IMG/VR virus record: IMGVR_UViG_2563366800_000003
From: a virus
Lineage: Duplodnaviria > Heunggongvirae > Uroviricota > Caudoviricetes
DNA: 19,093 nt
Reading direction: 5' to 3' (one strand)
Below the pieces are notes generated by a model, which saw only the letters and a program-made list of their open reading frames with translations, did not search any database and was not told the origin of the DNA. The position numbers and the translations under genes are program-made. Positions 17,693-17,794 of the stretch are shown here, piece by piece. How positions within the stretch are numbered: the stretch's first letter is position 1; the number at the start of each line of letters is the position of its first letter.

Positions 17693-17718
17693 TATGGGGG
17701 TACTTTTGGGGGTATCTA
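17693..17718. promoter_or_regulatory. ATGGGGGTACTTTTGGGGGTAT: right-hand copy of the paired TGGGGGTA motif seen upstream of int
   Basis: 22 of 23 positions identical to 1179-1200; ~60 bp from the degenerate att core copy. Confidence 0.45.
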
Positions 17719-17776
17719 TAAAAAATGAACAATAAAAAAGGCAACAAAAACAAAGCTTATCGCCTATGTGTATTGT

Positions 17777-17794
17777 TCCTATTATCGCACCATT
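17777..17794 (+). other. Degenerate copy of the tRNA-Thr 3' end (TCCTATTATCG-CACCATT); candidate right attachment-site remnant
   Basis: 18 nt matching 1048-1066 with a single-base deletion; same orientation as the left copy. Confidence 0.35.

Follow-up and report, generated by a model that had tools for sequence, protein, structure and literature searches.

EcCIMP1 is a phage-inducible chromosomal island (PICI) of Escherichia coli MP1 that is mobilised by the P22-like helper phage Kapi1. Upon Kapi1 induction, it is excised and circularised in an Int- and AlpA-dependent manner and is transduced to new cells (PMC11773190, cited here and below as far as its text was searched). The searched text names only the 10-bp sequence TCCTATTATC as the core of the attachment site, and neither arm repeats nor a one-base difference between the two core copies are discussed in it. 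Here, we analysed a 19,093-bp stretch of viral DNA (IMG/VR record IMGVR_UViG_2563366800_000003; hereafter the window), whose positions 17693-17794 had been proposed from the letters of the sequence to be the right end of an integrated element. We consider it very probable that these positions are the right attachment site, attR, of a 16.7-kb PICI of the EcCIMP1 type, that the arm repeats in it bind the integrase of the island, and that its core with a single G is not damaged; strand exchange most likely occurs mostly to the right of the run of G residues. In kind, the site corresponds to the usual attachment site of arm-binding integrases of the P4 type on PICIs, and the island family has been published. 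What goes beyond the searched EcCIMP1 text is a map of arm sites with fixed spacing and with covariation of motif and integrase, a probable autoregulatory site in the ribosome-binding region of int, a shared core that is longer than the 10-bp repeat and has a conserved 1-nt difference, and rare damaged thrW genes. The resulting map of EcCIMP1-type attachment sites is thus fuller than the 10-bp repeat and includes arm sites, the probable autoregulatory site and a core of ~18-19 nt with an indel.

Similar arrangements have been described for KplE1 (CPS-53), with IntS and TorI, and for the satellite phage P4, with Int and Vis. As in the map proposed for the window, int directly neighbours the tRNA target in these elements and points in the same direction, attL overlaps the regulatory region of int, there are arm-type sites beside the int start, and sites for accessory proteins are located between core and arm (PMC2951348). 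Both KplE1 IntS and P4 Int autoregulate from attL (PMC2951348). However, these elements target argW and leuX and have other arm motifs, and binding and regulation were tested there and are inferred here. Moreover, their recombining cores were reported to be identical (PMC2951348), whereas the P-side core of the window differs from the tRNA by 1 nt. The attP of phage lambda also resembles the site in the window in that it is used by a heterobivalent integrase and has direct-repeat arm sites on both sides of the core, at fixed distances, with AT-rich DNA between arm and core. In contrast, the integrase in the window belongs to another clade (P4-type, Arm-DNA-bind_3), and its target is the 3' end of a tRNA gene.

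To judge from sequence comparison, the island in the window is a close relative of EcCIMP1 with a different central cargo. Its integrase is identical to that of EcCIMP1 at 405 of 405 translated positions (MP1 locus CP139039), and the 102 bp at 17693-17794 are 100% identical to the right end of EcCIMP1, including the single G; the EcCIMP1 pair consists of an attL with GG and an attR with G. Identity to EcCIMP1 was 99% from attL to int, 98% in the primase region and 99% over the last 2.1 kb, and the published EcCIMP1 coordinates, 3,565,708-3,585,670, fall exactly in the two cores that we mapped. Both islands are located at tRNA-Thr and share one gene order: int, alpA, antA-like, ash, TOPRIM/DUF927 primase, ejection-protein genes, perC and pRiA4b-ORF3. 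However, EcCIMP1 is 19,963 bp long, compared to 16.7 kb for the window island, which has other ejection-protein alleles in its middle cargo and lacks the DUF2824 block. In addition, the window island follows a 46-bp fragment of thrW and precedes CP4-6, whereas EcCIMP1 is present between an intact thrW and the vat island. The features of the attachment sites in the window are as follows:

17695-17714, plus strand: putative arm-type pair of the P arm, with TGGGGGTA copies at 17695 and 17707, 82 bp upstream of the core start
17777-17794, plus strand: attR core in the single-G form, TCCTATTATCGCACCATT; the same block is present in A10, Ec-050, NCTC9022, MP1 and others
1050-1068, plus strand: attL core in the GG form, TCCTATTATCGGCACCATT
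1021-1066, plus strand: 46-bp 3' thrW fragment, the left target half of the island here; alignment to full thrW (A10, Ec-050) begins at ATTCGTAATG
1084-1104 and 1147-1167, plus strand: two 21-nt direct repeats, GTCTACTAAAGTC(TT/CC)TCAAAA, in the P' arm
1180-1199, plus strand: putative P' arm-type pair, TGGGGGTA at 1180 and 1192, 130 bp past the core start; the same layout is found beside int in relatives
1223-1230, minus strand: inverted TGGGGGTA, exactly filling the spacer between the Shine-Dalgarno sequence GGAGG (1218-1222) and the int GTG (1232)
1232-2446, plus strand: P4-type tyrosine integrase with an arm-binding N-terminal domain; Pfam Arm-DNA-bind_3 (residues 3-88, 1.4e-28), Phage_int_M and Phage_integrase

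At the right end, TGGGGGTA was found on the plus strand at 17695-17702 and 17707-17714, with a start-to-start distance of 12 bp. The whole window contains five copies, at 1180 and 1192 (plus strand), 1223 (minus strand), and 17695 and 17707 (plus strand). All of them lie within 180 bp of either core, and the rest of the island has none. Only 0.27 copies were expected, and five copies were reached in 0 of 200 dinucleotide-preserving shuffles; with five copies against this expectation, chance repeats were ruled out as the source of the right arm. Both direct pairs are parts of a 22-nt repeat with a single mismatch, ATGGGGGTACTT[A/T]TGGGGGTAT. The right core (TCCTATTATC-GCACCATT) and the left core align over identical blocks of 10 nt and 8 nt, between which the right copy is short of one G; outside these blocks there is no similarity, and a core match of this kind is expected by chance ~1e-6 times per window. 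The original observation of a TGGGGGTA pair followed by a core-like sequence was thus confirmed.

An isogenic empty site was identified in strain PCP06171, in which the left flank (IS1, a transposase remnant and the 46-bp fragment) is joined directly to ykfI/yafW, the right flank following immediately after a GG core. Its flanks (1076 and 1318 bp) match those of the window without a mismatch. PCP06171 lacks positions 1069-17776 and with them the TGGGGGTA pair; therefore, the right arm is element DNA and not native thrW-distal sequence. A native chromosomal origin of the right arm, which the original prediction had named as the alternative and which would place this sequence in strains without the island, was thus ruled out by the PCP06171 empty site. 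The empty site, together with the exact presence of the 102-bp stretch in eleven fetched loci, also supports the earlier proposal that the two ends are attL and attR of one integrase-bearing element, derived from an attP with arms on both sides of the core. Across other E. coli genomes, the homologous segment extends from 1021 or 1067 to ~17794-17810, and in 47 complete E. coli genomes at least 80% of the window is found at a single locus. The contexts of the island include thrW, island and CP4-6 (A10); thrW, island and yagP'/paoD (Ec-050); a lambdoid prophage, the 46-bp fragment and island (E8); and island followed by the vat island (NCTC9022, MP1).

We further checked the core in a collection of P-arm sites. 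These were collected by the pattern of a pair, 50-80 nt and a core in viral contigs (39 loci) and species-representative genomes (15 loci), and E. coli loci were added, resulting in 59 P-arm sites with 51 distinct arm sequences from at least 11 genera. Genera among the species-representative genomes were Atlantibacter, Leclercia, Pectobacterium, Citrobacter, Cedecea, Pseudocitrobacter, Pluralibacter, Kluyvera, Lonsdalea, Lelliottia and others. The core beside the P arm had a single G in 50 of the 59 sites, spanning at least 11 genera, including 12 of the 15 species-representative genomes, and also in all sister subfamilies with GGGGGCA or TGTGTATAG arms. A separate sample of ten E. coli assemblies was anchored on the last gene of the island and not on the core pattern. 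All seven intact cores in this sample were TCCTATTATCGCACCA, with at least four different right flanks and no GG core, and three further-decayed cores had one substitution and two larger deletions (e.g. TCCTCTTATCGCACCA, TCCTATTATC--CCATT). Among 20 metagenome matches, a single G was present at 18 of 19 P-core-P' junctions, the twentieth match being an attL. At the yagP' flank, at least two complete E. coli genomes had GG (CP53, Z1323CEC0013), and the next six best rows among 157 genomes had a single G.

The core beside the T-arm of thrW was GG in all 11 fetched attL and attB sites, and no single-G attL was top-ranked among ~712 E. coli genomes. Any base was allowed at the position of the second G by the collection pattern and no substitution was found there among the 59 sites; therefore, random mutational decay was rejected as the origin of the single G. 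In addition, the identical P arm was joined to at least five different right-hand sequences (a one-mismatch copy was found in Atlantibacter), indicating that the single G travels with the element. We suggest that the single-G core would be the form carried by the element beside its own P arm, and GG the form carried by thrW. The original prediction had noted a 1-bp deletion in the right core and had read it as a possible sign of reduced excision competence and of fixation. One G is indeed absent on the right, but its interpretation as a mark of decay is at odds with the single G in 50 of 59 sites, and EcCIMP1, with identical attR and integrase, is excised, circularised and transduced (PMC11773190, searched text). 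A one-base mismatch between att cores is easily taken for decay; in this family it is the rule and does not conflict with demonstrated mobility, and a mis-annotation can thus be avoided.

The arrangement of the arm repeats was also conserved. The distance from the pair to the core was 80-82 bp in 57 of the 59 P-arm sites, and the intervening DNA was AT-rich and otherwise diverged. Strain G5 has a different satellite with another spacer sequence, and the spacing is still 82 bp. The layout of the P' arm was constant as well, with a direct pair 12 bp apart, ~23 nt containing CTGTTCGGT, and an inverted copy ending 1-2 bases before the int start. Sister elements on the same thrW core carry other motifs at equal positions. 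GGGGGCA pairs were found at -81 in the P arm (L064, L069, L081), and a TGGGGGCA pair with an inverted copy was found at int (L031, L070, L011). Another example involved TGTGTATAG pairs at -80/-81 in the P arm (L016, L066, L067, L074, L076); one of these loci, L067, is a complete element whose TGTGTATAG-type P' arm consists of a pair and an inverted copy abutting the ATG. A further family had CGGGTATC pairs at -79 (L005). The integrase N-termini differ in step with the motifs (...YWRLKYRVAGKEKLLALG for TGGGGGTA, ...YWRMKYRFNGKEKRMAFG for TGGGGGCA and ...SWRFRYRFAGK for TGTGTATAG), i.e., arm motif and integrase covary in three subfamilies, TGGGGGTA, TGGGGGCA and TGTGTATAG.

Fixed spacing and covariation of motif and integrase are what would be expected if a heterobivalent integrase used the repeats as arm-type sites. 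An arm-binding domain is present at the N-terminus of the island integrase, and non-core repeats are present on both sides of the core, forming an attL set and an attR set. We infer that the TGGGGGTA repeats are arm-type sites that are likely bound by the integrase. In this scheme, the two P-arm copies would be bound by the N-terminal arm-binding domain of the P4-type integrase of the island, and the P-arm pair, the P'-arm pair, the inverted copy and the core would together constitute a heterobivalent-integrase attP of the lambda/P4/KplE1 kind, in which the integrase would bridge arm and core and thereby build the recombination complex. Dyad symmetry around the core was not convincing by eye, and therefore no core-type sites were called.

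The inverted TGGGGGTA at 1223-1230, located between the ribosome-binding site and the int start, is by analogy a likely autoregulatory arm site that probably lets the integrase repress its own gene. No sigma-70 consensus was detected upstream of int in a promoter scan of 1000-1300, and autoregulation is therefore proposed only conditionally. The two 21-nt repeats in the P' arm are candidate sites for an accessory protein, possibly a recombination directionality factor such as AlpA or integration host factor (IHF); they lie between the core and the arm sites, the same position as that of the TorI sites of KplE1 attL. Relatives also have a GTCTAC-type motif in their P' arms. The conserved CTGTTCGGT (1203-1217 in the window; also in L031, L067 and L070) was found between the direct pair and the inverted copy in all three arm-motif subfamilies, and may act as a promoter element or be recognised by a shared factor of the host or the island.

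The comparative data also narrow the possible location of strand exchange. The P arm is associated with G and the T-arm of thrW with GG; therefore, most exchange should occur at or to the right of the G-run. Its right limit is given by the divergence of attL and attR, which begins after CACCATT in E. coli and after CACCA in Pectobacterium (attL CACCA-TCCTACC, attR CACCA-GTTTTTT). The exchange zone would thus be GCACCA(TT), which in thrW covers the final base of the acceptor stem, the discriminator base and CCA. Exchange to the right of the G-run agrees with the GG of the PCP06171 empty site and with the single G of junctions with a foreign P' arm in tandem arrays. The junction with the vat island also had a single G in NCTC9022, AR_0017 and MP1, the three inspected of 19 E. 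coli genomes with this junction.

On the other hand, several observations weigh against this interpretation. Nine of the 59 P-arm sites were GG. Where a P arm was joined to its own P' arm, GG was found each time (three of three: L042, the circular contig L071 and the tandem in L037). Among displaced 46-bp fragments of thrW, ten with several flanks had a single G, versus at least 110 with GG. A 75-nt thrW with a single G was detected directly beside the vat island in two unrelated E. coli genomes, SCU-176 and VTB96815v. In the searched text of PMC11773190, the proposed core is the 10-bp TCCTATTATC, and with the published coordinates (19,963 bp) GG falls inside the element. With regard to sampling, the site patterns required TATTATCG(N)CACCA, and other core lesions were sampled only in the protein-anchored E. 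coli set. With regard to the arms, a strict IHF consensus was present in only 11 of 51, at -28/-29, in contrast to lambda with its IHF bends, and therefore we make no claim for IHF. If the crossover were always to the left of the G-run, the prevalence of G in attR and at foreign junctions would be unexplained, and if it were always to the right, the same would apply to the scars and the GG of own-P' junctions; therefore, the G-run should lie at the edge of, or inside, the exchanged segment. Exchange mostly to the right of the G-run is the most likely arrangement, and an overlap that spans the indel is its main rival.

The single-G displaced fragments (L092-L101, viral contigs) lie at the right ends of P22-integrase-type prophages. 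The 75-nt thrW, TATCGCACCA, is located at 1596-1670 of L223 (SCU-176) and 1596-1670 of L224 (VTB96815v), as assembled, and is labelled tRNA-Thr in RefSeq. It is probably the scar of an excision of an EcCIMP1-type island that left the short core, and these rare genes suggest that island excision can occasionally damage an occupied tRNA gene. No case of a 75-nt single-G thrW was found at the yagP' flank.

Comparison of the attP and attB cores revealed an identical 10-nt block and an identical 6-8-nt block with a 1-nt indel between them, and the explanations for this structure differ in where they place the crossover. If the G-run were inside the overlap, recombination would proceed across the 1-nt heterology, the heteroduplex would segregate into G and GG at replication, and selection on thrW would keep attL GG. 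This scheme would cover attL with GG together with attR with G, the GG of own-P' junctions and of some P-arm sites, the single-G 46-bp scars, the two 75-nt thrW genes and the GG empty site, and the conservation of both identity blocks in attP fits integrase binding on both sides of the indel. We regard it as possible though rather unlikely: the majority of tyrosine recombinases depend on identical overlap sequences, with IntDOT as a known exception, overlaps of unequal length in the two partners would be unusual, and an unbiased G allele would halve with each transfer cycle, yet it is found at 85-99% of P-arm sites. A crossover within the 10-bp repeat TCCTATTATC, as in the EcCIMP1 hypothesis, would let the G-run travel with the right-hand DNA, attP being GG and the single G chromosomal. 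The published boundaries and length, which place GG inside the PICI, would fit this, as would the GG in three of three own-P' junctions and the existence of single-G thrW scars. However, it predicts a GG attR after insertion into a working thrW and GG at foreign-P' junctions, and a single G was found in 50 of 59 sites and 18 of 19 junctions, respectively, as well as at the three inspected vat-island junctions. The same right flanks have GG when joined to thrW and G when joined to the P arm, and an identical deletion would have to arise independently in many genera, all of which make a crossover in the 10-bp repeat improbable.

Two further explanations concern the nature of the core and of the repeats. 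It is highly improbable that the right core is a decayed copy whose 1-bp deletion reduces or prevents excision, with the island on its way to fixation. The cores do differ by one base, further decay occurs in some E. coli copies, and perfectly matched elements could recombine more readily, as GG in all three own-P' junctions might indicate. But the same single-G core lies beside 51 distinct and highly diverged P arms, which come from at least 11 genera, and it is shared by subfamilies with other motifs; substitutions of the second G are absent from the 59 sites, the identical P arm occurs with at least five right flanks, an isogenic empty site exists, and the mobility of EcCIMP1 with the exact attR and integrase already contradicts abolished excision. 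A quantitative reduction of excision relative to a GG site may still occur. It is also very unlikely that TGGGGGTA is bound by another protein (AlpA or another excisionase, a repressor or a replication protein) and not by the arm domain of the integrase. EcCIMP1 excision needs AlpA and further repeats are also present in the P' arm; against this, the motif varies together with the integrase N-terminus in three subfamilies, its distance to the core in the P arm is fixed, the inverted copy abuts the int start codon and is retained even by the truncated int of the vat island, and the layout is like that of the IntS and P4 paradigms. In addition to exchange mostly to the right of the G-run, we tentatively consider, as an unlikely extension, that the 1-nt core difference is a conserved functional asymmetry across thrW-targeting integrase subfamilies, located in or at the edge of the exchange zone, with recombination over a 1-nt heterology or with a short 6-nt overlap at the CCA end. 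Excision could then leave a 75-nt thrW, stabilising the island; if so, loss of the island would be penalised by a damaged thrW, a built-in stabiliser.

A search for free circular attP had little yield: in viral and metagenome contigs, chromosomal islands in tandem accounted for most of the P-core-P' junctions, and no attP sequence was found in the supplements of the EcCIMP1 paper. One circular metagenome contig, PPYF01371357.1 (L071; 10,897 bp, 79-bp terminal overlap), contains a related island with a GG attP junction; this island has lost its P' arm sites and the first ~38 codons of int, and the contig may represent either a defective circle or a tandem repeat. In L042, a 77-bp terminal repeat starts exactly at the core, which may reflect either a tandem or a mixture of circle and integrated form. 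The thrW gene is often followed by tandem arrays of 2-3 islands or prophages, each bounded by a copy of the thrW core (L005 8890-12030, strain JX21CE35; L031 12640-14000), and members of these arrays include a P22-type prophage, a PICI, another integrase element, and the CP4-6 or vat island. The vat island at thrW of extraintestinal E. coli has a truncated integrase of the same family as that in the window, a P' arm that is ~86% identical, and an inverted TACCCCCA at the int start. In contrast to the window island, it has lost the direct arm pair, its int is cut short, and in tandem arrays it serves only as right flank. In the EcCIMP1 study, this neighbouring island did not excise (PMC11773190, searched text).

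At the left end, where a tRNA-Thr gene had been assumed, ARAGORN detected no tRNA gene in the window, and 1021-1066 is only a 46-bp 3' part of thrW that begins in the anticodon loop. Therefore, excision here would affect no tRNA gene. A search of a phage collection showed that the 46-nt fragment matches P22-like phages; it is a displaced piece left at the right end of a P22-integrase-type prophage. The rest of the left flank (1-1066) includes an IS1 end (1-210) followed by a truncated transposase and a prophage remnant, and in PCP06171, corA/ysgD were found beyond IS1. This organisation suggests that an IS1-mediated rearrangement removed most of a thrW prophage. Additional features of the window are as follows:

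2838-3041, plus strand: AlpA-family regulator; Pfam Phage_AlpA, 7.5e-20
17739-17765, minus strand: terminator-like hairpin between the arm pair and the core, predicted by a consensus scan only
17795-19093, minus strand: right flank in the chromosome, formed by the left end of a CP4-6-type island and containing ykfI (18174-18515), yafW (18536-18853) and a DUF987 gene (18872-19093, to the window end)

The hairpin is followed by a T-run on the minus strand, an orientation that would stop read-through from ykfI/yafW into the island, and it is specific for the P-arm type of the window.

The gene content of the island corresponds to that of a PICI. It has an int-alpA-primase/replication module and a size within ~10-20 kb, is flanked by att repeats at a specific site, and has an empty site (PCP06171). 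The AlpA counterpart in EcCIMP1 is required for excision (PMC11773190, searched text). Other products, identified from open reading frames (ORFs) and Pfam, include AntA-like and Ash-family proteins, a zinc-ribbon/TOPRIM/DUF927 primase and a pRiA4b-ORF3 protein. No capsid, tail or lysis genes were detected in the ORFs, their Pfam matches or the RefSeq annotation of relatives, the only virion-related genes being homologs of gp20 and gp16. No sign of psu, delta, sid or epsilon was found in the Pfam matches of the ten ORFs scanned or in the RefSeq product names of relatives. A P4-like satellite in the strict sense was rejected, as only the integrase and primase are P4-like. Relatives have a second small AlpA/helix-turn-helix gene on the opposite strand near the right end (window region 14579-15001, minus strand), which corresponds to alpA_1 in EcCIMP1; alpA_1 was reported to replace the excisionase of the helper.

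The phage collection contained no record of the island, and matched only its P22-like ejection genes and the 46-bp core. The ejection genes, at 10334-13887, code for homologs of gp20 (Pfam Inj_translocase, 3.3e-82) and gp16, which are ejection (DNA-transfer) proteins of P22, and the DNA of these genes is 78-92% identical to that of P22-like phages of Salmonella and E. coli. The A10 and MP1 relatives additionally have a DUF2824 gene and another gene upstream of the ejection genes. A satellite with its own ejection proteins is unusual, and is consistent with a P22-like helper such as Kapi1.

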